Positions 8,880 through 24,337 of a DNA stretch of 64,000 nucleotides are shown here, piece by piece; within the stretch, counting starts at the first letter, position 1; the number at the start of each line of letters is the position of its first letter. Source of the stretch: Candidatus Doudnabacteria bacterium (lineage in GTDB: Bacteria; Patescibacteriota; Doudnabacteria; UBA920). The position numbers and the translations under genes are program-made. The notes below the pieces were generated by a model. That model saw nothing but the letters and a program-made list of their open reading frames with translations. It was not told where the DNA came from and ran no database searches. The stretch is from assembly GCA_023245895.1 (NCBI GenBank), contig JAHFJJ010000002.1, positions 3,348-67,347 of the forward strand, written 5' to 3'.

Positions 8880-8907
8880 AAAAGACCCCAAACCGTTGGA
8901 GTCTTTT
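8880..8907 (-). terminator. terminator hairpin after the vWA gene (aaaagactccaacggtttggggtctttt then a T-rich run on the minus strand)
   Basis: Stem-loop with a downstream T-run on the minus strand. A second perfect palindrome (taataagcattttcgt...acgaaaatgcttatta) lies at 8767..8806. Confidence 0.55.
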
Positions 8908-8957: not shown

Positions 8958-11075
8958 CTAAATTTGCCTTCGCTTATCAATCTCCTTTCGCAAAAAACCT
9001 AACGCGTAGGGCAGGGCAGTAGCCGGTTTATCTGTGGAAAATGCAAAAATATTCTTGTTTTTATCTTTCAAAGGTTCAATATAGGAAGCGGTTACGGCCT
9101 CGGCTTCTTCCTGGTCATCGCCGTATCCGATTATTAAAAAAATAACCTGGCCGTCTTCCTCAATTTGCTGCATAACCGGGGCTATGCCCTCGCGGTTGCC
9201 TTGGCCGTCCGTAAACATAATAATTATTTTGATGACGTTATCTTTATTCAAGGCTAAAGCTTCGTGGACTTGCTTAACCGCGGCCACTTCGTCAGTACCG
9301 CCGCCGACTTGCGATAAGCGGTCTACAATCTTAATTTCTTTTTCGTCGCTCAAACGCTCTTCCAGCTTACTGACGCGCTCCGCCGCGGTTGAGTATTTAG
9401 TTACGCCGACCTGGAAAGGCTGCTCTTCGTCCGGGATAAGCAGGTTTTCCGCTTCCAGGTCTTTTAAAACCAGTTTGAAACTCTCCACAATAATAACGCC
9501 CATATCGGTGGACTTTTCAATCTTTTCGCCAAACATGGACTCCGAGGTGTCGTAGAGCAGTTCAAGCTGGGTTTGCAAAAATTGCGGATTGCGCACGAGC
9601 CTCATTTTGGTATCGGGGTCAAGCTCGCCGGTTAAAATTGCGGCTACGTGCTCATATTCCAAGCCCGGCACAATTTCGCCTTCGCGCTTGAGGTATTCAA
9701 TTTTTTTGCGTCTGTCGTCTAAAAATATTTCTGCCAAAACCGCGGCAGTAGACATAATTTCCGAAGGGTATTTTTCTTTGGTCCGCTCCCAGCTTTCTAT
9801 AGATTCCTGGCGGACTTGCATGCCTTCGGCCAGGCCTCTTTGGCGGCGCGCGCGGTCTAAGTCCCGCAAGGCTTCTGCCCGCGCCGCAAGCGCGTCCGCG
9901 CCGCGGTCGTCCTTAGGCGGGGCTACTGGAACTTTAGGCCCCTCTTTGCCCAGTATGCCCTCCAGTTCTTTCATTGCCTCGCCAAACTTTTCCCCATCCT
10001 CTTTGGAAGGCGCCTGGCTGGCATATTCTTTAGCTGCTTCTTCCAGTTCTTTGAGCAACTGGTTTTTTAGTTCTTCAATTTCTGCTTTGGTCAAAGGCAC
10101 GTCCGAAGTATCCCTGCCGGGCTTACCCGGCTTGCCGCCTTTGCCTTTTTGCCCTTCGCCTTTTTGTTTTTGCCGCTCTTCTTTTCGCTTCTCCAGCTCG
10201 GCAGTCATCAGCTTAAGGTACTCCGGCAGCCAGACTTGCTCGTAAGCCTGCATTTTACGCTCTAGACTGCGTTTTTGTTCGCCCTCTTTGGCAAAATAGG
10301 TGTAAGCCTGCCAATCCATGGTTGTGGACAGGGCTCGGCTGTCAATAATCCTGCGGAACGATTTATACACATCATCATCCAATTTTTTTCCAACCTCGGG
10401 GTCTTCATTAAAACGGTGCCTTAAAATAGACTGCAAAAGCTGTTGGGGTTTGGAATAATTTTTATATGTCTCCGGCGGCTTGTCCTCGGTATTAAGCGCG
10501 CGCACCGCGTTGCGGATTATAGTATAAGGCCGCCTGCCGGCAAAGGACTCCAGCCAAACATCAGCCACGGCATTATTGACATTGCCGTGAACCGCCCCTA
10601 AAAAGCGCTGTTCAGCGTTTGCGTCCCCTCTATATGCCTCGGGTATGGGCACATGTTTTAGGTTGCCAAGTAGCCTGTCCTGCAGTTCAGTAACTTCCGG
10701 AGCGTGGTGGAAAGCTTCGTGGTAAAAAAATCCTTTAGCCTCTGCTGGCTGCCAGGGCTCTACTCCAAATTCAGGCGCGCCGGTCGCGTGGATGGGATTA
10801 TAATAAATGGTTTTAGTGTTCAAGTTCGTATAACCGGACTTTAACACGCCTGTCTGGCGGAATTCCTGTTCAAGCGCCGGGTCCGGCCGGAACGAAAACC
10901 CGCCCGAAGCGCTGGAAAGCATTTTTAAATGCTCCGGGCTAATGACCTTTTCCATTTCCAAAGGCGGCCGTCCCGGTTTTTTTTCGCCCTTCCCATCCGG
11001 CGCGTCTGGAGGAAGCGGCGGTTGGTTTTGGCCCATTTCGTATTGTGCTGATTGCTTTTCGGATTTTTCGCTCAT
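8958..11075 (-). CDS. vWA-domain protein with an N-terminal HExxH (putative metallopeptidase) region, the MoxR-partner type
   Basis: 705 aa. N-terminal FFYHEAFHH holds the HExxH motif. The C-terminal vWA has the MIDAS motifs DTSES (DxSxS), GGGTD and FTDGQGN. A central Lys/Glu-rich low-complexity linker contains GKPGKPG. Confidence 0.8.
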   Translation of the reverse strand: MSEKSEKQSAQYEMGQNQPPLPPDAPDGKGEKKPGRPPLEMEKVISPEHLKMLSSASGGFSFRPDPALEQEFRQTGVLKSGYTNLNTKTIYYNPIHATGAPEFGVEPWQPAEAKGFFYHEAFHHAPEVTELQDRLLGNLKHVPIPEAYRGDANAEQRFLGAVHGNVNNAVADVWLESFAGRRPYTIIRNAVRALNTEDKPPETYKNYSKPQQLLQSILRHRFNEDPEVGKKLDDDVYKSFRRIIDSRALSTTMDWQAYTYFAKEGEQKRSLERKMQAYEQVWLPEYLKLMTAELEKRKEERQKQKGEGQKGKGGKPGKPGRDTSDVPLTKAEIEELKNQLLKELEEAAKEYASQAPSKEDGEKFGEAMKELEGILGKEGPKVPVAPPKDDRGADALAARAEALRDLDRARRQRGLAEGMQVRQESIESWERTKEKYPSEIMSTAAVLAEIFLDDRRKKIEYLKREGEIVPGLEYEHVAAILTGELDPDTKMRLVRNPQFLQTQLELLYDTSESMFGEKIEKSTDMGVIIVESFKLVLKDLEAENLLIPDEEQPFQVGVTKYSTAAERVSKLEERLSDEKEIKIVDRLSQVGGGTDEVAAVKQVHEALALNKDNVIKIIIMFTDGQGNREGIAPVMQQIEEDGQVIFLIIGYGDDQEEAEAVTASYIEPLKDKNKNIFAFSTDKPATALPYALGFLRKEIDKRRQI

Positions 11076-11140
11076 ATGCTATTATACTTAAATTTTTTAA
11101 TTTTCGGTACTTCGTTAAGTTTACTATGTATATCTCATTT

Positions 11141-11947
11141 TTAAAACTTTTTTGATTCAGGGATTTTAGAAGCGGCAATGCCTTGGTCTCGTTCTGGCAT
11201 TACCAATTCCAAACCCTCATCACCTATTTTAATTTCTTGAGCGGCTAAAATTTTCAAGCTCCTTGCAAGTTTAATAAAATTAAACCAATCATCAGCGTCT
11301 CTATATTCCCCAAGTTTCCTCTTCATTTTTTTCCAGGTTTTTTGGTCCGGTTGACAGTCAATTGGTACGCTTAAAAGTTTAATACGCGCCGCGAATTCAA
11401 CATACTCTTCCAGGTTCGAGGTTCGCTTTTCTTCCAATTCCATTTTCATGCCTTCAATCACCCGCTTATCTATACCCAGTTCCGCATCGGGTTTGAACAA
11501 CTTTAAACTCCCCGCCTCATAAGCAAAGTTCCAAAATTTATTGGCTGAACGAAGCGCCTGATTTTTGGACCTTTTTATGCTTCTTACTCCTGCGGCTACG
11601 GCTTTTTTTATAATCTCCTGGTCTGCGCTTATTTTAAGCACCCTTAAACAAGCTAAAAAACCTACATTTTCATAGGAACCGAAATCGGTGGTGGATTTTT
11701 GTTTTAACATTGCTTCTAATCCCCGGCGCCAGCTGTCGGTTAATTGGAATTTAATATTGGGATCCAGAATTTTTAAACTTAGCATATGATCTACGCTACC
11801 TGAGCTTTGGGAAAATGATTGCATTGCCCGCCAGTCTTCCTGCGTGACTTCAGTAGCGGTGTCAAAAGTTCCCGCAGGCCTTTCCTGCTCAACGCTGAAA
11901 TTTTTTATATTCAGTTCTTCCGCCGGAATTCGCGTTTCAATAGCCAT
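11141..11947 (-). CDS. tandem-array paralog 13 (most distal) of the 'M-A/S-I-E-x-R-I ... K-x-F' family
   Basis: 268 aa. Starts MAIETRIPAEELNIKNF and ends KIPESKKF. Confidence 0.8.
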   Translation of the reverse strand: MAIETRIPAEELNIKNFSVEQERPAGTFDTATEVTQEDWRAMQSFSQSSGSVDHMLSLKILDPNIKFQLTDSWRRGLEAMLKQKSTTDFGSYENVGFLACLRVLKISADQEIIKKAVAAGVRSIKRSKNQALRSANKFWNFAYEAGSLKLFKPDAELGIDKRVIEGMKMELEEKRTSNLEEYVEFAARIKLLSVPIDCQPDQKTWKKMKRKLGEYRDADDWFNFIKLARSLKILAAQEIKIGDEGLELVMPERDQGIAASKIPESKKF

Positions 11948-11951
11948 AAAA

Positions 11952-12815
11952 TTAAAACTTTTTTACTTCGGGCAGATCTTGGGTTTTAGCCCCAACTTTA
12001 GGCTCAGGCATTTTTATTTTTAAACCCGCTTCCGTAACCCTAACCTCCTCGGCCGCAAGAATACCTGCATCGGCAATAAGCACAACAGCCTCTCTTATAT
12101 TCCCGTCGCGCAGGTAATCGCTGATTGTCGTTCTAATCCCATCCCAGGCTTTGGCCGTTACCCTTATTTCTTTTAGTACATCGGGCGCGCCGACTTTTAA
12201 CAGCATTGCGTAATTAGTAAAATTAGCCCACTCCTCCGCCTGGCCGTAATCTTTTACAGACTGCACCATTTCCAAATCCGGGTCAAGGACTTCTTCCCGC
12301 AGGTCCAAAGGCATTTTATTTGGGTACAGTACTTTTAGCGCAATTTGTGTTTCAATTTGGTTCGCCGATGTGTCGAGGCTATTTTCTTTAGCCATTTCCC
12401 ATAAACCTTCGCCGTCTATGCCGTATTGGGAAAATTTGTCAGGCGCAAAAATTTTCAGGACAGCCGCATCCTGAACCGCATAGCCCAGTACGTCGACGTC
12501 GCATAATTCCCCATCGTCCACAAATCTAGCATAATTCTTCCAAAATTGTTTTTCCACAATTTCCTGGCATTTTTCGGCTACTTCTTTAATTTTTTCCGGG
12601 TTCATTTGCAGTAAAACGGTTAAAGCCCAGGCGGGGTAGTCTTCTGTTTCAGCATATTTTGAAGAATTATATTTTTCCAAATAATCTTTAATTTGCTTCC
12701 ACTCCTCTTCTTTGACATCGCGGATCGGATCAAATTCAACAGCCATCTCCAGCCTGTCAATGCTAAAATCCCTAATATTGAGTTCTTGGGTATTGATTCT
12801 TTCTCCGATGGCCAT
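11952..12815 (-). CDS. tandem-array paralog 12
   Basis: True start MAIGERINTQELNIRDF (ATG at 12813-12815); the ORF track extends it to 12944. Ends PEVKKF. Confidence 0.8.
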   Translation of the reverse strand: MAIGERINTQELNIRDFSIDRLEMAVEFDPIRDVKEEEWKQIKDYLEKYNSSKYAETEDYPAWALTVLLQMNPEKIKEVAEKCQEIVEKQFWKNYARFVDDGELCDVDVLGYAVQDAAVLKIFAPDKFSQYGIDGEGLWEMAKENSLDTSANQIETQIALKVLYPNKMPLDLREEVLDPDLEMVQSVKDYGQAEEWANFTNYAMLLKVGAPDVLKEIRVTAKAWDGIRTTISDYLRDGNIREAVVLIADAGILAAEEVRVTEAGLKIKMPEPKVGAKTQDLPEVKKF

Positions 12816-12816
12816 A

Positions 12817-13659
12817 TTAAAAATTTTTAGTTTTAGGAACCGGGGGCGTTTCCAGGATTTTTGGTTTTGGCTTGCTTTGCAGGTGGAGTCCCGATTGGTT
12901 AATTTCAATTTGGTCTGCTGAAATAATCGCAAGTTCACACGCAAAATCCAACTGGTCTTCAGGCGGCATGCTATGAAACTTTGTTTTTATTTCTATCCAC
13001 TCGGTTTCGTCCACAGCCTGTAAGTCAAACTTGCCAGGCAAAATAACGCGCAGGACGGCCAGTTGGCTTACCAAACTCCGCCAGGACTTTTTAGAGCGGC
13101 TTAATTTAATTGAACCTTGCAACTCCGGCAAAAAGTCTTTGGCTAATTTTAGCTTGTTGTTAGGCGTTAGGATTTTTAGGTTTTTATAGACTTCCTGGGT
13201 CAGACTGCCTGAGCCGACGCCTGCACAAAATTCAATTGCTTTATTTCTCGCGGCTAGTGGCAGTAAAAAATCCGGCATAATTTTTTTAATGGAGTATGCC
13301 GCGCGGATGAGCGTATCGGTGGTAGCGGCAGTCTCCCCGTTGGAATTTTTTTCAACCAGATATTCCCAGGTTTTTTCCAGCCCTTCTCTTAATTTCGTCA
13401 TTTGACCAGAGGACAGCCTTTTTAAAGTTTCCGCCTTCAAGAAACATAAATTGCCTAAGTTTTTTAGACGGTGGGGAACAACACTGCCTGAGGCAAGCCA
13501 GGGTAAATCTTCGGCAGCTAAATTTTCAAAAACTTTCCACTCCCGCTCGTAAATATCTTTTTTCGGGTCAAAGCCCGCGGTGTTGCCGGCTTGCTCTCTC
13601 TCGATGCTCAAACCTTTAATATTTAATTCTTCCCTAGGAATTCTATATTCAATAGGCAT
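12817..13659 (-). CDS. tandem-array paralog 11
   Basis: Starts MPIEYRIPREELNIKGL and ends PVPKTKNF. Confidence 0.8.
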   Translation of the reverse strand: MPIEYRIPREELNIKGLSIEREQAGNTAGFDPKKDIYEREWKVFENLAAEDLPWLASGSVVPHRLKNLGNLCFLKAETLKRLSSGQMTKLREGLEKTWEYLVEKNSNGETAATTDTLIRAAYSIKKIMPDFLLPLAARNKAIEFCAGVGSGSLTQEVYKNLKILTPNNKLKLAKDFLPELQGSIKLSRSKKSWRSLVSQLAVLRVILPGKFDLQAVDETEWIEIKTKFHSMPPEDQLDFACELAIISADQIEINQSGLHLQSKPKPKILETPPVPKTKNF

Positions 13660-13661
13660 AT

Positions 13662-14447
13662 TTAAAAGTTTTTAGTTTGCGGGACAGGTTGCGTGCTGGT
13701 GAGCGGCACTTGTTCTTCCGCCATAACCAATTCCAGCCCCTTGTCTGTAATTTTTACTTCTTTGGCGGCTAAAATTGACATGCTATAGGCAAGCATAAGG
13801 CTGTCAAGGTCCGTTTGGACTGTTTTTTGGAGGGTTGTTTTCATTGCTTTCCAGTCAGCTTTGCTTATTGCAGTCTTGGCAAATTCTTCCGGAAACAAAA
13901 TTTTTTCCCTGGCCGAGTAGGAAGCAAATAACCTGGGGGCGTGTAATTGTTTATCGGGCTCAAATTTCATATGCTGGAGCCACATACCGGCCTTTTCCGG
14001 AAACAGGATTTTCATATTTTTTGCCATTTCCCTGTAAGTTTGGTCCTTTTTAGCCAATCTTGTGTCGTGAAGCTTTTGAATAATCTTGCCTAAATAATTG
14101 TCCAGGTTTTTTGATTTAACCACTTCCGGCCATAATTGTTTAATGGTAGCGCCCAGTGAGGCAACGTCATACCATTGGTTTCGTCTTATGGCCTCGGAAA
14201 GGTCGCGGTCAGCCGCGTTTTTTTCTTGTTCCTGCGCGGGCAAAGCGCCGGGCTGCATGGTCCTAAGTCGGGCCAAGTAAGTATAGCCGCCTCTAGAAAG
14301 ACCATTAATAGCCAATTTAATTTTCCGCCATTGTTGCGGACTCAAATCCCGCGCGGGGTTAAACACCGCCCGGGTTTCCGCCCTATGCTCGGTGTGGAAG
14401 CTTTTAATATTCAAGTCTTGTTGTGGAATTCGTTGTTCTAAGGACAT
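13662..14447 (-). CDS. tandem-array paralog 10
   Basis: True start MSLEQRIPQQDLNIKSF; ends PVPQTKNF. Confidence 0.8.
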   Translation of the reverse strand: MSLEQRIPQQDLNIKSFHTEHRAETRAVFNPARDLSPQQWRKIKLAINGLSRGGYTYLARLRTMQPGALPAQEQEKNAADRDLSEAIRRNQWYDVASLGATIKQLWPEVVKSKNLDNYLGKIIQKLHDTRLAKKDQTYREMAKNMKILFPEKAGMWLQHMKFEPDKQLHAPRLFASYSAREKILFPEEFAKTAISKADWKAMKTTLQKTVQTDLDSLMLAYSMSILAAKEVKITDKGLELVMAEEQVPLTSTQPVPQTKNF

Positions 14448-14448
14448 A

Positions 14449-15279
14449 TTAGAAGTTTTTAATTTGGGGGATTTCTGGAGCTTTTTGCATAGTATTTTTT
14501 TCAGGCATAACAATTTCCAGGCCGTTGTCGCCAATTTTTGCTTCTTTGGCGCCAAGAATGGTCATTTCTTTTAATTTATAGCACGTGTAATAAAAGTCCC
14601 CATGAATAAGGCTGGATTCAACTGACTGCTTAAAATTTTTTTTCATCTCTTTCCAGTCGCCTGGGCCTATAACCAAGGCGTCCGGATAGCTCATTTTTAA
14701 GCTGGCGGCATCATTCCTAATAAGCTCCCAATATTTTTCCCGCTTTGCCTTTTGTGTTTTAAAATCAGCTAATATAATGTCTTTTGGTACCATATATTCT
14801 GGAGTAACTTCATCCGGAAATAGGATTTTCAAATAACAGTAAGTACGGGGAGAAAAGTTGTTTCTGATAGGGTTTAATTTTATTTTTTGCCATAAAGGGG
14901 CTAGTTTGGCTGTTAGGTTTTCAGCAGCAAAAGTTTCGGGGTCCAGCCTCTTGAGTTCAGCGGCGTCGACAAAAGGGTCGGTAATACTTTGCCCGGGCTC
15001 TTCTGCCTTTAGCAAGTCTTTTGTAAATTTTGATATTATCCTTTGCCTGCAAACTTCAGCCATATCCGGGAACAGTTCAGGATTAATCCCTTTTAAGAAT
15101 GTTAAAGTTCCTATTGGCAGTGCTTGGCTGTCGGCTGTTAAAATAAACTCTCTTAACGCCTTCCATTGCTCGGGAGTAACCTCTTCCATGGGATTAAACT
15201 CGATATTTACTCCCCGCTGTTCCAGGCTGAACTCCCTGATATTCAGTTGTTCGGTATTTATCCGTTGGTCTAAGGACAT
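14449..15279 (-). CDS. tandem-array paralog 9
   Basis: True start MSLDQRINTEQLNIREF; ends PEIPQIKNF. Confidence 0.8.
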   Translation of the reverse strand: MSLDQRINTEQLNIREFSLEQRGVNIEFNPMEEVTPEQWKALREFILTADSQALPIGTLTFLKGINPELFPDMAEVCRQRIISKFTKDLLKAEEPGQSITDPFVDAAELKRLDPETFAAENLTAKLAPLWQKIKLNPIRNNFSPRTYCYLKILFPDEVTPEYMVPKDIILADFKTQKAKREKYWELIRNDAASLKMSYPDALVIGPGDWKEMKKNFKQSVESSLIHGDFYYTCYKLKEMTILGAKEAKIGDNGLEIVMPEKNTMQKAPEIPQIKNF

Positions 15280-15280
15280 A

Positions 15281-16093
15281 TTAAAAATTTTTAATTTTTG
15301 GCAGGGTTGATTTAGTTTCGGCTTCAAAAGCCGCGGGTCGGGTTATTTCCAAACCATTTTCGGTAATCTCTATTGCAGGGGCTGTGGCAATAAGCAAGTT
15401 AAAGGCATCTCCCACAAGTTCAGAAGGATGAGTTTTGTTTTTCTTTAGGTGTTTTTTCATTGCTTGGACAAATTCTGGCCCAAGCTCGGGCTTAAACCAA
15501 GGGTCAATAGTTCTAATACAGGCGCCATATTTAAAAATATCTGAAACCGAGGAGCCTGGCCTGGCTTTTAGAGCATCAAAGTCTTCCTTAAAAATTACAT
15601 CCGGCCCCGCATCTAAGTTGGGCAGGAAAATATAATCGTTTAATTGCAAACCGGTTATTTTCATATCGGCAAAAACTTGCATACTGTAGAAAGGGGCGTC
15701 GCTTTTCAGAAATTTATCTATTGAGTTAACTTCTTTCGCCGTAAAATTAAATTCATAGTTTATTGGCTTTAAAATTTTTAGTGCCGCTAGCGTATCGAAA
15801 AATTGATCCCAATGCTCTAACATCCTGCTTTCTCTCACTACCGCCATAGTTCTCTCTTCCCATTCAGGGTCGAAGTTAATTGCGATTGCCGGATTTAAGA
15901 GCTTTATTTTAGAAGCAATCCGGGCGGAGTCATCGGGCTTAAATTCTTTATTTTCCTCCATTACCTGCAAAAGATCGTCCCACTGCTCAGCACTAATATC
16001 CCGCTCTGGGTCAAAGCTCTCGTTATTCCACTCCTGAAAATTAAAGTCTTTAATATTTAGTTGTTCGGTATTTATTCGTTTGTCTAAGGACAT
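15281..16093 (-). CDS. tandem-array paralog 8
   Basis: Starts MSLDKRINTEQLNIKDF and ends LPKIKNF. Confidence 0.8.
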   Translation of the reverse strand: MSLDKRINTEQLNIKDFNFQEWNNESFDPERDISAEQWDDLLQVMEENKEFKPDDSARIASKIKLLNPAIAINFDPEWEERTMAVVRESRMLEHWDQFFDTLAALKILKPINYEFNFTAKEVNSIDKFLKSDAPFYSMQVFADMKITGLQLNDYIFLPNLDAGPDVIFKEDFDALKARPGSSVSDIFKYGACIRTIDPWFKPELGPEFVQAMKKHLKKNKTHPSELVGDAFNLLIATAPAIEITENGLEITRPAAFEAETKSTLPKIKNF

Positions 16094-16094
16094 A

Positions 16095-16886
16095 TTAAAA
16101 AGTTTTAAATTGCGGGAGAGCGCCGGCAGGCTCAGCCAGCTCGCCCGAGGAAATGGTTAATTCCAGGCCATTGTCTGTTATTTTTATTTCCTCGGCCGAA
16201 ATTATGCCCATATAGTAGGCCAGTTTAATGGCCCTTAAATAATCACGGCTGTTTTGGCGCTTTTCAAAAAGAATTTGGAATTCGTATTTCATTTTTTTCC
16301 AGTTTTCTTTGGACACAGGGGCTTTTTTAAATTTTTCCGGCGCGACAATTTTTTGGCTGGCCTTAAAGCCGGCGTAGGTTTCGGCAAATTGGTATTCAGG
16401 TTCGGTATTAAGCTCTGGAATTTTAAATTTTTCTGCTTTGTCCGGAAACAGTATGGTTAATTCCCTGGCCATTTGTATCCTATTGACTTCGCCAAACTTT
16501 CCTTCCAAAGCCAGCGCCAGTTGGTCCAAATCACCTTCAAGGCCTATGGCTTTAAACTCTTTTGGATAAAGCTGCTTCATCGCAAGCGCTATTTTTGGCA
16601 CTGCCCGCCAGTTGTCTTTGGCCATCAAAGCCTCTAGTTCGTCGCTAACAACCGACTTGGTGGAAGGCTTGTCTACTATTTTGTATAAACAGCCCGGCCT
16701 TATAGTCCTTAGTTCCGCCAAAGCCGTCCAGGACAAATGGGTATTCATAAAACTTTCAATAATTTTCCATTGCTCGGGCGTAATATCCCTGTTTAAATTA
16801 AACTCCTGGGGTGCCTCCTGGACGCCAAGGTTTAGGTCCTTTATATTTAAATCTTCTGAATCTAATACGCGGTTTTCAATAGCCAT
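16095..16886 (-). CDS. tandem-array paralog 7
   Basis: Starts MAIENRVLDSEDLNIKDL and ends ALPQFKTF. Internal repeats include AMKQLYPKEF and LTILFPDKAEKF. Confidence 0.8.
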   Translation of the reverse strand: MAIENRVLDSEDLNIKDLNLGVQEAPQEFNLNRDITPEQWKIIESFMNTHLSWTALAELRTIRPGCLYKIVDKPSTKSVVSDELEALMAKDNWRAVPKIALAMKQLYPKEFKAIGLEGDLDQLALALEGKFGEVNRIQMARELTILFPDKAEKFKIPELNTEPEYQFAETYAGFKASQKIVAPEKFKKAPVSKENWKKMKYEFQILFEKRQNSRDYLRAIKLAYYMGIISAEEIKITDNGLELTISSGELAEPAGALPQFKTF

Positions 16887-16888
16887 AG

Positions 16889-17731
16889 TTAGAAATTTTT
16901 AATTTTCGGAATTGCCGGCGTTGCCTGGCTTATTTGGGCGTTGTTTGACAGCTCCATGCCGTGGTTTGTAAATTTCACCTCTTTGGCCGCCATAGTAGCC
17001 AGCCATTCGGCTAAGTTTATATACTGTAAACAGTCATGGCCGCTTTGGCAATTGTCTAATTTTTCAAAAAGTTGGGTTTTCATAGCTTCCCAGTTTTTTG
17101 CGGTAATTTTTACTTTCGCGAATTCTTCCGGAAACAAAATTTTCAACAGGGCCGCGCTTTTGCAAAACATATACCAATTGCCGCCTTTATTTTGCGCCAT
17201 ATCTTGTTTCAATAGCGAAACGTCGTTGTCCTTCAACAGGTCTTTTTCTTGGCCAGGGAAAAGAATTTTAAAATAAAGAACGTTGTCTAAATCTACTGTA
17301 CCCCGGCCTGTTATTTTAGGCTTCCTTAAGGCTTCGGCCATTCGTTCGCGATATTGCTCGGCCAATGCTTGCGAAAACCTTTCCGGAAATAAGGTTTTCA
17401 TTTCGGCAAAATTACCAAGCAAATTATCATAGCCCATTTCTCCCCGCTCGCAATGGCGTAAAATGGTTTTGGCGAATTTATCCATCTTCTGCCATTTTTT
17501 ATTGTCAGATTTTTCAAATAGTCTTTTTGGTTCAATCACCTGCAAACTTGCCAAATAAAGGTCAACATTTTCTTTTCGCGCAGACCGTTCCATTTTATCC
17601 CATTGCGCTTTGCTCAAATCCCTTACCGGATCAAAAGGTACATCCTTAGAAGACTCCGCCGAGGGCAACTGCTCCAGGTTTAACGAGCTAATATTCAATT
17701 CTGCCGGGTTAACCCGCTGTTCTATGGACAT
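16889..17731 (-). CDS. tandem-array paralog 6
   Basis: True start MSIEQRVNPAELNISSL; ends PAIPKIKNF. Confidence 0.8.
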   Translation of the reverse strand: MSIEQRVNPAELNISSLNLEQLPSAESSKDVPFDPVRDLSKAQWDKMERSARKENVDLYLASLQVIEPKRLFEKSDNKKWQKMDKFAKTILRHCERGEMGYDNLLGNFAEMKTLFPERFSQALAEQYRERMAEALRKPKITGRGTVDLDNVLYFKILFPGQEKDLLKDNDVSLLKQDMAQNKGGNWYMFCKSAALLKILFPEEFAKVKITAKNWEAMKTQLFEKLDNCQSGHDCLQYINLAEWLATMAAKEVKFTNHGMELSNNAQISQATPAIPKIKNF

Positions 17732-17732
17732 A

Positions 17733-18530
17733 TTAAAATTTTTTAATTTCAGGAATACGCGAACCAAGTTCCGGTAATTTTTGTACTGCCGGCGACAGTT
17801 CCAGTCCCCTATTCGTAAATTTCAGCTCGCTCGCGGAAATAATAGCCATGTCCCTGGCCAAAGTTATGGCTTTGTCTAAATTCGTGCCTTTTAATTCCGC
17901 GCGCAAGTCTTGTTGCATTCCTTTCCAGGCATTGTCGCCGATGTTTTGAATATTAAAACGTCCAGGAAATAAAATCCGTAATGTGGCCATATCTACAGCT
18001 AAGCTTGGCCAATTTTTGAGTTTTTTTGAAAGACCAATGTTTAGGGTAATAGCAGTAAAATCTTCTTCGTTTACTTCCACTCTTTCAGGCAGCAACCTTT
18101 TCATTCGAGTAGCAAGGTCAAAATAAAGAGCGTCATTCCAATGCCTTAACGCAATGTTTTCCAAGTCCTCGCGGGCAATAAATTTTTCCCACTGGTCAGG
18201 CCATAACTGCCTAATTGACGCGGCGACATCCAAAAAAACCAGCTGGGCTTGAACGTGATTTACTTCCTTTACTCTCCTGGAAATCTGCTCGCTTAGTTCC
18301 GGGTTGGTTGCCGGATTGGGGAGGTTGGGAAAGCTTTCAGGCCTTATTAAGCGCAAATCCGCAATTCTTTCCCAGACATGGTAAGTTTGCTCTACTTCCT
18401 TCGCGTCTGCTTCCATGCGCCGCCAGTCGTCGGGTTTAATATCAAATTCCAGCAAGCCTTTTTCCGGAGTCTGGATATTAAAGTTCTTTATATTCAATTC
18501 TGCCGGGTTAACCAGCTGTTCTATGGACAT
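17733..18530 (-). CDS. tandem-array paralog 5
   Basis: Starts MSIEQLVNPAELNIKNF and ends RIPEIKKF. Confidence 0.8.
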   Translation of the reverse strand: MSIEQLVNPAELNIKNFNIQTPEKGLLEFDIKPDDWRRMEADAKEVEQTYHVWERIADLRLIRPESFPNLPNPATNPELSEQISRRVKEVNHVQAQLVFLDVAASIRQLWPDQWEKFIAREDLENIALRHWNDALYFDLATRMKRLLPERVEVNEEDFTAITLNIGLSKKLKNWPSLAVDMATLRILFPGRFNIQNIGDNAWKGMQQDLRAELKGTNLDKAITLARDMAIISASELKFTNRGLELSPAVQKLPELGSRIPEIKKF

Positions 18531-18531
18531 A

Positions 18532-19365
18532 TTAAAAATTTTTAATTTCGGGCGTCGGTGGAGTCGCGGTTTCTGATTGTTTTTTTGGCATCACCAACTC
18601 CAAGCCCTGCTCTGTAATTTTAATTTCCTGGGCGGCTATCATTGCAAGGTCGCGGATCATGCCGGCTTGGTCCACGCTTTTAGTCTTTCCCTGGGCCAAT
18701 AAAAACTTTAAATGACTTCGCCAAATTTCCCAGGTTTGGCAATCAACTTTTAACTTTTTGGCGTCATCCGGAAGCAAAGCCTTAAAGGCCGCAAAATACG
18801 CGAGTTTTAAGCTAAAATCATCAGCCATAACCTGTTGCAAGGGTTCATTTATAGGTTCTCCTTTTGCCAGAGTTTCCAACCAGGGATCTGTGGGTATTTT
18901 ATCTAAACTGAGTTCACCCGCCCGGTCGGGAAACAGAACCCTCATATCAATTAAAAATCCCGGACCTACGTCGCCTGATGCCAGCTGCTCATTTCCTTTA
19001 CGCCACAGTTTCGGGGCGGTTCTAAAAGTTAGCGGTTCAAATTTATCCGGAAAAAGTTGCTTAAACCCCGCGTATTCCGTAACCACGGAATACCAAAGGT
19101 TTTCGTCAATTAACCCTTGAATCCTCCTTTTAAAAATATCACCCTCCGGCACCGGAATATGGGTAAACTTATCCGGCCGTACTTGCCGAAGCACAGCCAG
19201 CATGCCATAAAAGGCGGGATTGTCAGATATGGTTTGGCTTAAAAGTTCCCAATCCCTTTCGCTCACGTCCCGCTTAGGATCAAATTCAACGCCGGCCTGC
19301 GGCTGTTCCAGGTTCAGTTCTTTTATATTCAATTCTTGCCGATCAATCCGTTTTTCTATGGACAT
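18532..19365 (-). CDS. tandem-array paralog 4
   Basis: True start MSIEKRIDRQELNIKEL; ends PTPEIKNF. Confidence 0.8.
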   Translation of the reverse strand: MSIEKRIDRQELNIKELNLEQPQAGVEFDPKRDVSERDWELLSQTISDNPAFYGMLAVLRQVRPDKFTHIPVPEGDIFKRRIQGLIDENLWYSVVTEYAGFKQLFPDKFEPLTFRTAPKLWRKGNEQLASGDVGPGFLIDMRVLFPDRAGELSLDKIPTDPWLETLAKGEPINEPLQQVMADDFSLKLAYFAAFKALLPDDAKKLKVDCQTWEIWRSHLKFLLAQGKTKSVDQAGMIRDLAMIAAQEIKITEQGLELVMPKKQSETATPPTPEIKNF

Positions 19366-19366
19366 A

Positions 19367-20203
19367 TTAAAAATGTTTAGCTTCCGGCAGCGGCGAGTCC
19401 GCTGTGAAATTTGTTTCCGGTAAAATAATAACTCCGCGTTCATCAATATGTGCGTCCGGGCAGGATAAAATTTTTAAATAACTTCCGACCCTCATCAGTT
19501 CGTAGGGAGCCCCCTGTTCTAGCCAAAATTTTTTAATGCCGCTCCAGTCTCGCGCTTTAATTAGGGGTTTTACATCCGGAGCCATTAACTTTAACGCTAC
19601 TGCTTTGGCTAAATCCGCACTTAAATGGAATTTTGAGTTGGGTGTTATAGCGAAAGATGTTTTTTTCATCTCCTCTATGGCTTTTTCCATAACTTGAGTC
19701 CATCGCATGCCTTTTAAATGCTGGGGAAAAACTTGCACCGCTTCCAAATGCTCATAGGGAAACGCAAGCGAACTTTCAATGCGGTCGTCAACCAGCTTCC
19801 AGTTCTCTTCCGAATTCCACTTTTTCCAAACATCGGTCCGCTCAGGAAACAGCCTTTTATATGCAGACGCGATACCTAAAAATTGCTGTACAGAAGGGCG
19901 GCTGCCTGTAGTCAGAGGCATTTCATTTGCCGCGGCTTCAAGAGCGCTGGCTAATTTTTCTGAAACTTGCGCATCGGGAAACAAAAATTTATAATTCGCC
20001 AAATAATCGGGCTTTTGCCCGAAAGCCGGCCTGCCTTCTTCCCAGTCACCGCTTATCCTAAGAAAGTTTTGCAGGCAGACCTCTCTGGTATTTTTTGGAA
20101 TTTCAACCTCGGGGTTAAATTTAAACCCGTCCACAGGCTCCTGTTCAAAGCTCAGCTCCTGGACTTTTAATTCGTTCGGGTCAATGCGTTTTTCAATGGC
20201 CAT
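19367..20203 (-). CDS. tandem-array paralog 3
   Basis: Starts MAIEKRIDPNELKVQEL and ends PLPEAKHF. Confidence 0.8.
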   Translation of the reverse strand: MAIEKRIDPNELKVQELSFEQEPVDGFKFNPEVEIPKNTREVCLQNFLRISGDWEEGRPAFGQKPDYLANYKFLFPDAQVSEKLASALEAAANEMPLTTGSRPSVQQFLGIASAYKRLFPERTDVWKKWNSEENWKLVDDRIESSLAFPYEHLEAVQVFPQHLKGMRWTQVMEKAIEEMKKTSFAITPNSKFHLSADLAKAVALKLMAPDVKPLIKARDWSGIKKFWLEQGAPYELMRVGSYLKILSCPDAHIDERGVIILPETNFTADSPLPEAKHF

Positions 20204-20204
20204 A

Positions 20205-21011
20205 TTAAAAATGTTTAGTTTCCGGAGGGCCGGTTTTGTTGTCAGTCTGCATTTCTGTTAAATTGCCCAACTCCAGGCCATTGTTTGTAACTTTTACTGT
20301 AGAAGCCGAGGCAATAACTGCGTTTACCGCATTTTCTGAAACCGGGAAAAGATCTGTTAATTCTGTCCCTGCCTTTAGTACTCCTTTTATAGCTTGGAAG
20401 TGTTTGGGTGTTAATTCAGGGTCAAAATTAGGTTTAACAATTCTCATACTGGCGGCGAAGCGGAATAGTTTTTCAATGGGCGCCTTCTCTTTCATTTCAG
20501 CCATGGTGGCTTCCAAAACACCCCAAAACTCCGGCGTAAGATATTTGTCCATAGGCAGGCCAATAATTTTTATTTCCGCTAAATGCAGCAATTGATAATA
20601 AGGTTCCATATTCGGGTCTGTCAGGAACACTTCTATAGACTCCGCTTCTTCCTGGCTGAATACAAATTTTTTTGAAGGCTGTAGAATCTTGATTGCTAAA
20701 GCTAGCGGTAAAAAGTCGCCCCACTCTTCGTCTTTTTTGTCAGTTTGTAATTCGTTTTCAATTTTAGTAAATTCTTCAGTCTCGATTTTTGGAGCTTCGT
20801 TTGGATACAAGATTTTGAGGTTTGCAGACATTAACGCGACATAATATCTACTACTTCCAGCCCTATAAGATTCTAAATCTCTAAACAAGCCCTGTTTTTG
20901 GCTTTGACTGAAGTCTCTTTTTGGATTAAAAAGGAAAGGCTGTTGCTTTTCGTTGAGGCTCAGTTCTTTGATATTCAGCCCTTCTTGGCTTATTCGTTTT
21001 CCAATAGGCAT
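20205..21011 (-). CDS. tandem-array paralog 2
   Basis: True start MPIGKRISQEGLNIKEL; ends GPPETKHF. Confidence 0.8.
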   Translation of the reverse strand: MPIGKRISQEGLNIKELSLNEKQQPFLFNPKRDFSQSQKQGLFRDLESYRAGSSRYYVALMSANLKILYPNEAPKIETEEFTKIENELQTDKKDEEWGDFLPLALAIKILQPSKKFVFSQEEAESIEVFLTDPNMEPYYQLLHLAEIKIIGLPMDKYLTPEFWGVLEATMAEMKEKAPIEKLFRFAASMRIVKPNFDPELTPKHFQAIKGVLKAGTELTDLFPVSENAVNAVIASASTVKVTNNGLELGNLTEMQTDNKTGPPETKHF

Positions 21012-21012
21012 A

Positions 21013-21876
21013 TTAAAAATGTTTAATTTGTGGGGCGTCAAATTTTGGCTTTCCGATGGGTGTAACCGGCATAACAAATTTAATCCTATTGTCTTCAACC
21101 ACAATGCGTTCCGCGGCCAAAGCTTGCAAAGTTGCCGCAACATTTAAAAATGTAGTCCAATTGCCCCTCTTCCGCCATCCTTCAAGGATGTCCCTTAGTT
21201 TTTTTACAGGCGGCAATTTCCCCTGCCAATGTGCGGCAAGTTCCGGGAAAGCGTACTTAATAGCGGCGGTTCTATTGATAAGCACGGAAGTTTCGTTTAA
21301 GTGTTTTTTGTTGTCACTATATTGTTTGTAAGCCCATTCCCAGGCAGTGGCACAAAACTGTTTTGCTTCTTCCGGCAGAGGTTCGGTCGGATAACAAATT
21401 GCGAAATTTTTAATTAACTTTACACCCTCATCAATCCAGTTGGTTGTCGTGTAATACAAAACGCTTTCTTTTAAAAGCTTAAATATTTCCGGGTTTTTTA
21501 AAATTTGCGCGCAATTCTGCGGGAACAAAATTTTCATCATCATTAGAGCCTCTGCTAGTTTTCCCGGTTTGCTTTCAGTTAAGTGTTGTTCTATTATAGT
21601 TTTTAAATTTTCTTCCTTAACAAAAGTTTTATTCTCATATGGAAAGTGCAAAAGCTGCGCGGGCGCCAAATAGTAGATGCTGGCGTACAAGTCATTTTCC
21701 GCTCTGGGCGCGCCGGAAGCTTTTTTAAAACTTACCAAAGACTCCAATATCCTGGTTTTGTCTGAATCTGTTATGTCGCGATTGGCATCAAATAAAATTT
21801 CAGTACTTTGGGAGCTTTCCAAAGATAAATCCTGAATTTTTATTTCTTGCGGATCAATCCGTGTTTCTATGGCCAT
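21013..21876 (-). CDS. tandem-array paralog 1 (first after the ATPase)
   Basis: True start MAIETRIDPQEIKIQDL (ATG at 21874-21876); ends DAPQIKHF. Confidence 0.8.
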   Translation of the reverse strand: MAIETRIDPQEIKIQDLSLESSQSTEILFDANRDITDSDKTRILESLVSFKKASGAPRAENDLYASIYYLAPAQLLHFPYENKTFVKEENLKTIIEQHLTESKPGKLAEALMMMKILFPQNCAQILKNPEIFKLLKESVLYYTTTNWIDEGVKLIKNFAICYPTEPLPEEAKQFCATAWEWAYKQYSDNKKHLNETSVLINRTAAIKYAFPELAAHWQGKLPPVKKLRDILEGWRKRGNWTTFLNVAATLQALAAERIVVEDNRIKFVMPVTPIGKPKFDAPQIKHF

Positions 21877-21919
21877 AGTCTTAAAAAACAAGCCGGAGTT
21901 TCCGCTCCGGCTCGTTAGG

Positions 21920-24043
21920 TTAAAATTGCTTTGCCGCGGGCACGAATTCGGTGGTGGCAAAACCCTGCAAACCGCGGATTTGCTTTATTATTTCTTCAAA
22001 ATCTTTTTTAGTGTCTTCCGAAGCCTTTTTGCGCTCATCATAAGCTTCCTGGCCAATATAGCCCATGATTTTGTCTTTTAATTTTTCGTCATCCATAAGA
22101 ATGCCTACGCTGGTAAGCATATCCACAACCGCTTTGGGGTTTTCACTGCCTTCAAATTGCTTGTAGCTTTCCACCATCACCTGGTAAACCGCTTCGTCAA
22201 AGGACATTTTGCTTGCCTGATAGAGCGGTTTTTTGTTTTTTGCGTCGCGGTAGAGAACAAGTTTTTCCCCAAGGTCCCGGATGGTACGGTAAGAAAGCGG
22301 AATCGTCTGCCTTTTGCCTTCCAAAAAAGAGCGTATTTTAGGAAAGGCTTCGTTAATTAAGGTGTAAAGTTTTCCTAAGTCTTCTTTAGAGCGCAAGAAT
22401 GTGCCGTCGGGGTTAGCCAGCGCGGAAAGCGACACCAACATTTCCTCTTTGCGTGGCGGGTAGGGAATTTCCATAACTTTGCCTTCGGCGCGCGAAGCCA
22501 AAGCTTCCGGGACTTCAAAGACACCATGCTTGCGTTCAATGTTGGCGGTAAAATACATCCTCCAATTATCGGGAATCGGAATACGCTCATCGTTATCCGC
22601 AAAATACCAATCCTCCCCGGGTTTGGCAGTTAAAAGCCCGTAAATTAAGCTCCAGTTTTTGTTTTTGTTAAATTCGTCCATTAGCACGCTGTCCCCCCGC
22701 CTTAGGGCCGCTGTAATAACCCCGTCGCGCCAGCCGTTCTTTTTGACAATATGCGCGAACTTTTTGGCCAACTCCCCGCGGAAAGCCGCCTCGGCCATGT
22801 TTACAACTTTGGTTTGTAAGTCGCGCAATTGCGGTACATCTGCTGCCTTGGTTTTTTCAGCTGCCTGCAAAGATTCCTGTATTTGGGCTATTGCTGTAAC
22901 AGCCGCCTCGTCCGGATTGAGATGCAAAGTTTCCCCAAGGAGCTTGCTGTGTTCGGAAACAAAATCCCTAAATTTTTCAGGATCCAGTCCTCGAAGGTCA
23001 TCGCTCAGCTTATTATAGTACTCAGTTGGGTCTTTAAATTCCAAAGATTTTGAACCGTAGAGCATGTAGCGGGTTACATCTTCGGACAAATCAAGATAAA
23101 CATAATTCCTGCCTTTTTCTTCCAGGTAATGGCGGACAAGCGTGGTCTTGCCCACGCCCGGAGGCCCAACTAAAACGCCGCCGACTGTGGTGCGCTGGTG
23201 CTGGGTTTCCCATTCATGGAGCATGTTTAAAGAATGGATGACGCTTTGCGTTTCCACTACATCTTCGCCTTCTGAAAATTGTTTTAAAACAGTTTCTATT
23301 TCTTCTTTGCCGGAAAAATACCTGACCATGGGGTCTTCCCACAGTTCCTCTATTTTAGCCCTGGCCGCGGCGAGTTCTTCTTGCAGCTGCTTTTTTGAAC
23401 GCGGAAGTTTGCGCTCTTTTTGAGTTTTAAATTCTTTTAAGGCGTTTACATACTCCTCTGATTCCTCATCAAAAATAGTTTTTAGCGCCTGTTCAATATT
23501 GTTGACATCGTCAGTTTGGACTTCGTCTGAAACCGACTGGCGCTGGCTTACGGCCTCGGCGCGGGCGTAAGAAATATCATCCAGGCCTTCGGCGCTGGCA
23601 AAGCTTGCCTGCTCAAGCAAGCCTGAAAGTTGGGTCGCGGTTTTAAGGCTATTTTTAAACTCTAAATAGTCAAGCTTCGAGCGGATGTATTCCCTATAGG
23701 CTTTTTCAAAAGACAGCTTTTCTTCGTCGCCCAGCCAGCCTTCAATTTCCGTTTTTTTGGCCTTATAATGTTGGGCGGCTAAAAATCTGTCATCGGCGCT
23801 TTTTGCAGACTTAACAATGCTCCTCAAATCCTGGGCTTGTTTTATCAAGAGCTGGAATTGTTCAATAGCTTTAAGGCGCAAATCACGTTCAAGTTCCGGG
23901 ACATTTTCCAAAGCTTGCTCGCGGGCTTCCCTTAAAACCCTATTTGCTTCAGGCTGTGTTTTTGTCTTTCTGCTTTCCTTTGCGGCGGCTTTTACTTCGG
24001 GCACTTCCCCACCCAAATGACGCGGCAATAGACGTTCGGGCAT
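21920..24043 (-). CDS. AAA+ ATPase (MoxR/AAA_5-like core with a long coiled-coil N-terminal region), first gene of the operon
   Basis: 707 aa. Walker A is GPPGVGKT and Walker B is DSVLMDEFNK, the DE-x-N-R/K signature of the MoxR/dynein-related clade. About 160 aa are inserted between the two Walker motifs. The C-terminus ends ...VPAAKQF, a K-x-F tail like that of the downstream paralogs. Confidence 0.8.
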   Translation of the reverse strand: MPERLLPRHLGGEVPEVKAAAKESRKTKTQPEANRVLREAREQALENVPELERDLRLKAIEQFQLLIKQAQDLRSIVKSAKSADDRFLAAQHYKAKKTEIEGWLGDEEKLSFEKAYREYIRSKLDYLEFKNSLKTATQLSGLLEQASFASAEGLDDISYARAEAVSQRQSVSDEVQTDDVNNIEQALKTIFDEESEEYVNALKEFKTQKERKLPRSKKQLQEELAAARAKIEELWEDPMVRYFSGKEEIETVLKQFSEGEDVVETQSVIHSLNMLHEWETQHQRTTVGGVLVGPPGVGKTTLVRHYLEEKGRNYVYLDLSEDVTRYMLYGSKSLEFKDPTEYYNKLSDDLRGLDPEKFRDFVSEHSKLLGETLHLNPDEAAVTAIAQIQESLQAAEKTKAADVPQLRDLQTKVVNMAEAAFRGELAKKFAHIVKKNGWRDGVITAALRRGDSVLMDEFNKNKNWSLIYGLLTAKPGEDWYFADNDERIPIPDNWRMYFTANIERKHGVFEVPEALASRAEGKVMEIPYPPRKEEMLVSLSALANPDGTFLRSKEDLGKLYTLINEAFPKIRSFLEGKRQTIPLSYRTIRDLGEKLVLYRDAKNKKPLYQASKMSFDEAVYQVMVESYKQFEGSENPKAVVDMLTSVGILMDDEKLKDKIMGYIGQEAYDERKKASEDTKKDFEEIIKQIRGLQGFATTEFVPAAKQF

Positions 24044-24261
24044 ATATTTTGGTTAATTTAAAGTTGGTTTCTTTTGTTGATTTTAGGCTAAAACACCCTT
24101 TAATTATAATATAAATTTTGTTATTTTGCAAAAAGGCTTTTATTATAGGCAATCCGAGCTTATTCCCTTAAAGTAAAAAATTGATTTCAGCCCACAAACA
24201 CAATGGGCTGCGCTAAGCGCAGCCCGAATTCAAGCCTTAAAATCTTCTTCTTGTAGTATTA

Positions 24262-24337
24262 TGGAGCCCAAGTGCGGAATTGAACCGCAGACCTTCTCCT
24301 TACCATGGAGATGCTCTACCAACTGAGCTACTTGGGC
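24262..24337 (-). tRNA. tRNA-Thr (anticodon GGU)
   Basis: Reverse complement reads GCCCAAGTAGCTCAGTTGGTAGAGCATCTCCATGGTAAGGAGAAGGTCTGCGGTTCAATTCCGCACTTGGGCTCCA. A TATAAT sits 7 nt upstream. Confidence 0.85.

Follow-up and report, generated by a model that had tools for sequence, protein, structure and literature searches.

We analysed a 64,000-nt stretch of DNA (hereafter the window) from the GenBank assembly of a Candidatus Doudnabacteria bacterium (GCA_023245895.1, contig JAHFJJ010000002.1, positions 3,348 to 67,347), a genome of 1.14 Mb in 41 contigs that is 91% complete. In the window, 15 consecutive open reading frames (ORFs) on the minus strand run from position 24043 to position 8958 and encode an AAA_5 ATPase, 13 tandem paralogs of one protein family (P1 to P13) and a protein in which a zincin-like domain precedes a von Willebrand factor A (vWA) domain. 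An original prediction, made from the letters of the sequence, had placed 15 minus-strand genes within these limits, and ORF scans of the window match its coordinates exactly. Here, we compare the cluster with related loci from bacteria of the candidate phyla radiation (CPR) and describe a short C-terminal tail that the paralogs share with the ATPase and that varies in concert in the two from locus to locus.

Results

The first gene of the cluster (21920-24043, 707 aa) encodes the MoxR/NorQ/GvpN-type AAA_5 ATPase, which ends in the tail PAAKQF. The paralogs follow as P1 (21013-21876, 287 aa, tail PQIKHF), P2 (20205-21011, 268 aa, sister of P8 in the tree), P3 (19367-20203, 278 aa), P4 (18532-19365, 277 aa, in a window-specific clade), P5 (17733-18530, 265 aa), P6 (16889-17731, 280 aa), P7 (16095-16886, 263 aa), P8 (15281-16093, 270 aa), P9 (14449-15279, 276 aa, the copy modelled by AlphaFold2), P10 (13662-14447, 261 aa), P11 (12817-13659, 280 aa), P12 (11952-12815, 287 aa) and P13 (11141-11947, 268 aa, the sole copy with clear orthologues elsewhere). 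P1 and P3 were assigned by family profile and alignment, P2, P4 to P8 and P10 to P12 by these and the tree, P9 by its model and the family profile, and P13 by identity and clade support. The last gene (8958-11075, 705 aa) encodes the zincin-like domain (residues ~42-293), a charged linker and the vWA/MIDAS domain (~500-660), as read from the Pfam VWA match, the orthologues and a model. The motifs GPPGVGKT, VLMDEFNK, YHEAFHH, DTSES, GGGTD and FTDGQGN are all found in the ORF translations as they had been quoted.

The 12 gaps between paralogs measure 1 nt (nine), 2 nt (two) or 4 nt (one), the outer gaps measure 43 nt (ATPase to P1) and 65 nt (P13 to vWA gene), and the stop codon is TAA in 14 genes and TAG in the vWA gene. 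The longest ATG ORFs of P2 and P4 are longer than given above (312 and 303 aa); the alignment favours the shorter starts, each of which begins 1 nt past the preceding stop. One transcript for all 15 genes is plausible. No stretch hydrophobic enough for a signal peptide or a membrane helix occurs in any of the encoded proteins (maximum 19-residue hydropathy 1.38).

That the ATPase is of the MoxR/AAA_5 type is well borne out: it matches Pfam AAA_5 at E = 4e-11 (43.5 bits, with the cutoff at 22), and all 42 orthologues likewise have AAA_5 as their best family. In the ESM Atlas, its neighbours by feature and by structure belong to AAA_5 and bear the names NorQ, GvpN and CbbQ/NirQ/NorQ, and many phage AAA_5 clusters are found among them as well. 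Its second half resembles GvpN, and its Atlas model (predicted local distance difference test, pLDDT, 0.57) superposes on NorQ and GvpN at template modelling (TM) scores of 0.51-0.53. The ATPase looks catalytically competent because K299, D456, E457, N501, R518 and R586 are invariant in the 42 orthologues; by position, N501 would be sensor 1, R518 the arginine finger and R586 sensor 2. Walker A (293-300) and Walker B (456-457) are separated by ~155 aa, which suggests an enlarged insert, and the N-terminal region of ~240 aa is helical. At least 75 homologues were found at 32-70% identity, and the named ones are Parcubacteria, Daviesbacteria or Patescibacteria. Searches beyond cellular orthologues gave a weak match to the phage CobS-like family phrog_249 in PHROGs, weak P-loop-level matches in PADLOC-DB 2.0 (E 9e-5 or worse), P-loop-level or chance matches only for the ATPase profile against the PDB, and no ATPase-encoding contig in IMG/VR.

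The last protein of the cluster matches Pfam VWA at 4.5e-12 (47 bits against a cutoff of 23.8), and VWA_2 is above its cutoff too. It has 16 full-length orthologues, several of which share contigs with ATPase orthologues. The predicted pairing of an HExxH motif with a vWA MIDAS stands, both being invariant in a 17-orthologue alignment: D509, S511, S513, T594 and D623 complete the MIDAS, and H119, E120, H123 and H124 (HExxHH) are invariant in the N-terminal domain together with N168, D172, W174 and E176. H124, D172 and E176 are candidate zinc ligands. The model of the N-terminal domain (42-293; pLDDT 90, predicted TM score (pTM) 0.86) places the HExxH motif in helix 69-81 of the model. Its top VIA matches have low Z scores and comprise ZMPSTE24 (5.9), Ste24 (5.1), ArdC (4.3) and jannalysin (4.3), followed by a DNA-protein-crosslink repair protease (6mdx, 4.2) and HtpX (4.2); at such scores the fold may be called zincin-like, which falls short of proof. 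Foldseek of this domain against the PDB gave no match at E ≤ 0.001, its profile gave chance-level matches only against the PDB, and Pfam peptidase models match neither the zincin-vWA protein nor its orthologues. ESM Atlas comparisons superpose this domain, at TM 0.63-0.67, on VWA+CobT_C proteins from tailed phages and haloarchaea, in their N-terminal parts, and CobT_C itself is a weak match in 8 of the 17 orthologues. PADLOC-DB 2.0 and PHROGs (E ≤ 0.01) hold no match to the vWA protein.

The 13 ORFs between these genes (261-287 aa) are true homologues, as had been supposed, with family-profile E values of 1e-66 to 1e-87, pairwise identities of 19-25% and isoelectric points of 4.6-9.6, and they are all the copies of the family in the 1.14-Mb genome. 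The statement that they belong to no known family also agrees with our searches, which found no match in Pfam, NCBIfam, PHROGs (three paralogs, E ≤ 0.01), PADLOC or the PDB. A profile search of 1.84 billion representatives recovered 1,770 related clusters at 50% identity, 1,180 of them at E ≤ 1e-10; this exhaustive search was used in place of a word-indexed protein search with the paralog alignment, which reached its sensitivity limit at 3 proteins.

An AlphaFold2 model of P9 built from 22 sequences (pLDDT 84.3, pTM 0.80) is all-alpha, with five repeats of ~11 helices in total followed by a C-terminal beta-hairpin; confidence is low for residues 1-22 and reduced for the C-terminal tail. Foldseek against the PDB returned nothing at E ≤ 0.001, TM scores in the Atlas reach 0.35 at most, and the Atlas feature search gave no usable match. 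The best VIA-wide matches are alpha/alpha toroids at Z 8.9-8.2 over ~200 residues, the range for unrelated helical repeats; the toroid types compared were (alpha/alpha) GH88/GH76/GH105, complement TED and terpene cyclases. In 140 representatives the repeat signature [LIVMFA][KRQ]x[LIVMFY]xP is present 3.0 times per protein, where shuffles have 0.22, and sits at four positions ~44 residues apart, with a degenerate fifth copy ahead of the hairpin. Information content is high in the N-terminal motif (…INIxxLxxExPE…FDPxxDITxxDW), the repeat signatures (KILxP), the hairpin (TDxGLEI) and the tail, and 0.7-0.9 bits outside the conserved motifs. We infer that the hypervariable helical bodies are diversified binding surfaces. 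In genome G312 some ORFs of the family reiterate only the C-terminal repeat unit several times (examples at C86:25-3237, C144:1569-4106 and C155:178-1594).

The paralogs end in the tail P-[EQ]-x-[KR]-x-F-COOH. Of the 140 representatives, 129 have P as the sixth residue from the end, 134 have K or R as the third and 131 have a terminal F. The same motif ends most ATPase orthologues, and within each locus the tail variant of the ATPase matches that of the paralogs. In the window, KQF in the ATPase goes with K[KNHT]F in the paralogs; the corresponding pairs are QKQI and QKQF (L011/L037), PRSF and RR[FY] (L013), QRTF and R[KN]F without Glu (L036), and RPERKLKAVA and RPERKELN (L039/L041). The ATPases of three loci in which no paralog was found (L043, L045 and L046) are without the tail motif, and a 100%-complete genome without ATPase and vWA genes (G301) has a single family member that covers profile positions 20-247 only and is without the tail. 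Because the ATPase carries the same tail and the variants co-vary by locus, the simplest reading is that ATPase and paralog tails would bind one co-evolving site on the machine. In one Staskawiczbacteria locus (L038), eight of eight paralogs end in PIPEIKKF, and median identity is 62% in the last 45 residues and 33% in the bodies, a contrast which suggests that the C-terminal module is more strongly homogenised or selected there.

Loci fetched from other genomes were scanned with profiles of the ATPase, the paralogs and the zincin-vWA protein. The three are co-located in many independent CPR loci, among which the named ones include Daviesbacteria, Staskawiczbacteria and Parcubacteria, so that co-conservation of the operon partners, on which the earlier proposal of one system depended, is upheld. 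The vWA gene is clustered with the ATPase gene in the window and at least 12 other loci; the number of paralogs per linked CPR locus ranges from 1 to ~30. Fetched loci of Daviesbacteria, Staskawiczbacteria, Parcubacteria and other lineages have the ATPase with 3 to 15 paralogs, and the zincin-vWA gene may be present or not. The nearest locus (L010/L032) has the ATPase, 11 paralogs, the vWA gene and one further paralog, and a Daviesbacteria locus (L036) has the ATPase, four paralogs, the vWA gene and one paralog. Two Staskawiczbacteria loci (L037, L038) have the ATPase, seven paralogs, the vWA gene and one to three paralogs, and the smallest arrangement (L041) has the ATPase, one paralog and the vWA gene. 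L011 combines five divergently oriented paralogs, the ATPase, seven paralogs, the vWA gene and at least three paralogs; L034 has at least eight paralogs, the vWA gene and seven paralogs. On a 722-kb contig (L013 + L035) the ATPase gene is divergent from ~30 paralogs, and the array ends at the vWA gene. The system is flanked there by PemK-toxin, Fic, PIN and SNF2 helicase-sigma-70 fusion genes (L013/L014 13347-13936; L035 12332-13318 and 20334-20732), in a neighbourhood rich in toxin-antitoxin and conflict-type genes.

Distant ATPases (31-36% identity) directly precede a zincin-vWA gene, with no paralog, at positions 261-4100 of L043 (Kerfeldbacteria metagenome-assembled genome, MAG), 6952-11694 of L045 (Altiarchaeota MAG) and 9749-14738 of L046 ('Gammaproteobacteria' MAG), where the taxonomic names are the MAG contig labels as given. 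This arrangement may be the ancestral two-gene form. Because these distant pairs have no paralog, the ATPase-vWA pair is, by this distribution, apparently the older core and the repeat proteins a lineage-restricted addition that has been unequally expanded.

The engine and the array evolve at very different tempos. Against the nearest locus the ATPase is 70% and the vWA protein 61% identical, whereas for 12 of the 13 paralogs the best cross-locus identity is 22-28%, not above the level within the array. P13 differs: it is 52-54% identical to the copies that adjoin the vWA gene in L032 and L009 (clade support 100/100), and its orthologues always adjoin the vWA gene. Eight window paralogs group into a single lineage-specific clade (99/95) in a maximum-likelihood tree, two more pair up, and terminal branches measure ~1-2 substitutions per site; the median identity of paralog bodies is 23-33% in each array examined. 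As 12 of 13 paralogs are without a cross-locus orthologue and many fall in a window-specific clade, against a conserved ATPase and vWA protein, the array evolves through gene birth and death and diverges to an extreme degree, in contrast to the engine. The only DNA repeats within the array are segments of 78-94 nt that span junctions; with no long repeats apart from these, cassette-type diversification or diversification in the style of diversity-generating retroelements was rejected. DNA of the locus occurs in groundwater metagenomes, and Logan contigs from four groundwater runs of one study agree without a difference with those parts of the array that they span, which is uninformative as to transcription and population variation.

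The position of the cluster bears on its mobility. The gene order rpsB-tsf-TPR-tRNA-Thr(GGT) is kept in three of three congeners examined, and a methyltransferase gene directly follows tRNA-Thr in L030 and L031; it was not found in the fetched stretch of L029, from the closest congener. In the window the tRNA-Thr(GGT) gene (24262-24337, minus strand; ARAGORN, Rfam) is the upstream boundary of an inserted segment, and 16 kb lie between it and the class I methyltransferase gene (7222-7989). The 16 kb consist of the 15 cluster genes and an NYN-domain (LabA-like nuclease) gene (8111-8722, minus strand; Pfam NYN 7e-24). The segment is an insertion beside tRNA-Thr, since the tRNA and methyltransferase genes adjoin in L030 and L031 and lie 16 kb apart here, and the 3' side of tRNA-Thr is, as far as these gene orders indicate, an insertion hot spot. 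A search of 40 relatives, including 18 congeners, did not find the paralog family; in a sample of 400 genomes across the phylum, 7 have the family and 3 have the ATPase. The genes downstream of the cluster vary by locus and frequently encode toxins or nucleases by type (NYN, PDDEXK_3, Smr, Fic, PIN, PemK). Such a pattern bears the signature of a horizontally moving accessory island. A search for attachment sites turned up no word of at least 11 nt that the tRNA side has in common with the distal end of the island.

The NYN gene has its own intergenic region, a weak PADLOC NYN model match (5e-6) and no ortholog-level match in the 18 congeners; it was rejected as a component of the system, other loci having different downstream genes. 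A promoter-like site on the minus strand (TTGCAA, 17-nt spacer, TATAAT; 24103-24131) with 10/12 consensus matches lies 60 nt upstream of the ATPase start; it is a pattern match, and the number of such sites in the region is near the shuffled expectation. Within the 218-nt spacer between tRNA-Thr and the ATPase start (24044-24261), a GC-rich hairpin (24205-24225, 9 bp, 8 of them GC) stands just before this site and looks like a terminator of the upstream tRNA/TPR unit. A terminator-like hairpin read from the sequence (8880-8907, minus strand; 8-bp stem, 4-nt loop, T-rich tail) lies ~50 nt past the vWA stop and was not listed by the consensus scan. In the closest congener, the TPR orthologue (G012:C3:5053-5784) of the window gene at 24398-25156 has one in-frame TGA, read through in a six-frame match, which could be a sequencing error, a pseudogene or local recoding.

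Discussion

We propose that the cluster is a horizontally acquired three-component system, in which a core engine works with tail-docked specificity modules in a conflict role, and we hold the balance of probability for this reading to be even. A ring-forming AAA_5 ATPase of the NorQ/GvpN/CobS type and the zincin-vWA protein would together be the conserved ATP-driven core engine, and the tail would be the handle through which this engine engages each paralog. The ends of the soluble paralogs (N-terminal peptide, C-terminal beta-hairpin and tail) would thereby be conserved handles on hypervariable bodies, and the array a library of interchangeable specificity modules, either clients or adaptors, for one, possibly proteolytic, machine. 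Its role would lie in inter-organism conflict, that is, phage defence or host interaction, and not in housekeeping. This role is our best guess, because lineage-specific duplication and extreme divergence of the array go with a conserved engine and a patchy island, and because of the analogy with vWA-MoxR conflict systems (PMC7159879). For the earlier suggestion of an ATPase-vWA machine acting on a set of clients, the anatomy and the idea of one system are supported by the co-linkage of the loci, and the direction, machine on client, is a matter of interpretation: the paralogs could be clients, adaptors, sensors or subunits. Physical docking, peptidase activity, direction of action and biological role we infer from the comparisons above. 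Complex prediction for P9 together with the zincin domain, the vWA region and Mg gave a score of 0.00, where the mark is 0.32, and counts neither way.

A more specific version of this proposal, which we consider unlikely, would make the array a set of hypervariable alpha-repeat receptors that plug by their tails into an AAA_5 motor and a vWA-tethered zinc protease, together a CPR engine of innate immunity or host manipulation. Its specificity would be expanded by tandem gene birth and death, and the tail of the ATPase would compete as a pseudo-ligand and so hold the engine inactive as long as no receptor has been loaded.

Several observations weigh against a mobile, tail-docked conflict system. 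Neither an integrase nor an att repeat was found flanking the island, the sequence-run search listed no RNA runs containing the locus, and in PADLOC no component matches a defence-system model beyond generic P-loop matches. The zincin assignment rests on Z scores of 5.9 or less, with a third zinc ligand at candidate level. A divergent ATPase in G256 (locus L026) ends in P-V-A-K-S-F, yet no paralog was found in that genome, which is 87% complete and has the ATPase on a contig of 3.2 kb. Conversely, G312 has at least 60 family regions on more than 25 contigs, and ATPase and vWA genes were not detected in this genome, which is 76% complete; the paralog family may thus also act without the core engine. 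The conservation of the termini, finally, could be partly at the nucleotide level, for translational coupling at the 1-nt stop-start junctions.

These points bear differently on the alternatives. One, doubtful in our view and still holding a sizeable minority of the probability, is assembly or maturation: the paralogs would be the product, as subunits of a heteromeric intracellular structure or scaffold, or as precursors that the zincin trims at the conserved N- or C-terminal peptide, and the AAA_5-vWA pair would be the assembly chaperone, with parallels in GvpN for gas vesicles, CbbQ-CbbO for Rubisco and the archaeal-virus MoxR-vWA pair for tail development (PMC7159879). The classical role of MoxR-type ATPases with vWA partners is that of chaperones in maturation or assembly, and zincins coupled to fast-diverging proteins with conserved C-terminal motifs are a known MoxR-vWA theme (both PMC7159879). 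The GvpN-like and NorQ-like neighbours of the ATPase point the same way, the extended N-terminal motif and C-terminal beta-hairpin of the modelled paralog could give head-to-tail strand complementation, and the conserved P13, always adjoining the vWA gene, resembles a dedicated subunit. A defined structure is nevertheless ill matched by a copy number of 1 to ~30 and by orthology that is lost at 70% ATPase identity; the family is moreover dispensable, missing from 18 of 18 congeners searched, and the spread of isoelectric points from 4.6 to 9.6 speaks of diversified surfaces.

The array might instead be independent of the engine, a separate expanding family of selfish or contingency type beside a CobS/CobT-like pair, its gene ends shaped by TAA-N-ATG termination-reinitiation coupling. 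This would suit the confinement of DNA repeats to the short junction segments, the identical 1-nt spacing of nine junctions, the abundance of the family in G312 and the core pairs without paralogs in distant lineages. We think it quite improbable, as the ATPase is tailed despite the 43-nt gap after its stop, and the ATPase of the 722-kb contig has the tail type of its array despite lying on the opposite strand. Tail co-variation holds even where the motif is internal (the RPERK type), the tail P, K/R and F are kept at the amino-acid level in 140 diverged representatives, and the linkage recurs in different CPR classes. Hardly any probability attaches to a remnant of a prophage or mobile element with the paralogs as virion or element-encoded structural proteins. 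Insertion beside a tRNA gene, the many Uroviricota clusters among the nearest structural neighbours of both core proteins and the weak phrog_249 match of the ATPase would agree with it; genes for an integrase, capsid, portal or terminase are, however, missing from the inserted segment, as is an att repeat, neither the paralogs nor the vWA protein have a PHROG match, no IMG/VR contig has the ATPase, and ordinary chromosomal genes flank the system in other genomes.

The core of the system proposed here, an AAA_5 ATPase with a vWA partner, is of a known kind. Like the MoxR-vWA pairs RavA-ViaA, CbbQ-CbbO, NorQ-NorD, CoxD-CoxE and GvpN, it combines an AAA_5 ATPase with a MIDAS vWA protein. It departs from them in the 707-aa ATPase with its ~240-aa N-terminal region and ~155-aa Walker A-B spacing, in the N-terminal HExxHH zincin-like domain of the vWA partner, in that no known single client (Rubisco, NOR, decarboxylase or gas vesicle genes) is encoded nearby, and in the 1 to ~30 diversified, tail-tagged proteins encoded with the pair. 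Tailed phages, haloarchaea and actinobacteria have CobS/CobT-like pairs that the core also resembles, on the evidence of the structural superposition of the vWA N-domain (TM 0.63-0.67) and the weak CobT_C and phrog_249 matches, although the sequence similarity of the N-domain is below the detection limit of Pfam and PHROGs. Cobaltochelatase CobNST itself was rejected, since CobN (PF02514) was detected in the control genomes and not in this 91%-complete one.

For one motor that serves several handle-bearing clients, the best analogy is Rea1/Midasin, in which an AAA_5 motor and a MIDAS domain grip a conserved handle on several assembly factors for ATP-driven removal. Midasin, unlike the system here, is a single giant polypeptide of six AAA modules, grips a ubiquitin-like (UBL) handle with an acidic residue, and is eukaryotic and devoted to ribosome assembly. 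FtsH joins an AAA+ ring to an HExxH zinc peptidase, and the tail of SspB on ClpX exemplifies how short terminal peptides dock interchangeable adaptors. In contrast to FtsH, ATPase and peptidase are separate proteins here, the ATPase is AAA_5 and not classical AAA, the zincin is not M41, and proteolysis is putative.

A precedent in biological role would be the vWA-MoxR ternary conflict systems, in which a MoxR-class ATPase and a vWA protein are combined with rapidly diversifying partners, and in which a zincin peptidase can be coupled to fast-evolving proteins with a conserved motif at the very C-terminus, for example FxSxx-COOH (Kaur, Burroughs, Iyer and Aravind 2020, PMC7159879). The likeness extends to the ATPase, the vWA protein and the diversifying partners, the zincin and the patchy, mobile distribution. 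The differences are that no VMAP (for which no profile was searched), effector-associated domains, radical-SAM or STAND partners were seen here, that what diversifies here is long tandem arrays of folded 270-aa repeat proteins and not small precursors, and that the zincin is fused N-terminally to the vWA domain, with no C-terminal effectors. A check of the VMAP position found the tRNA gene ahead of the ATPase and no further conserved gene in the cluster. The lineage here is CPR, which is unclassified in PMC7159879.

Within the limits of a restricted full-text literature search, the zincin-like N-domain family, the repeat family of 1,770 clusters, the tandem arrays and the tail shared with the ATPase are apparently undescribed, and curated models exist for neither the zincin-like N-domain family nor the repeat family. 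The latter is one of the larger uncharacterised protein families of uncultured bacteria, and the co-varying tail that links it to an AAA_5-vWA-zincin engine provides a testable handle on its function. Genomes of CPR bacteria (Patescibacteria) measure ~1 Mb, and the cluster takes up ~15 kb, or 1.3%, of the DNA of this one. Phages commonly carry CobS/CobT-like gene pairs that lack an explanation, and the system may illuminate these too. An unknown intracellular structure is indicated if the assembly reading is true; if the conflict reading is true, the cluster would be a new architecture among MoxR-vWA immune-like systems and the first candidate for recognition diversification in episymbiotic CPR bacteria.

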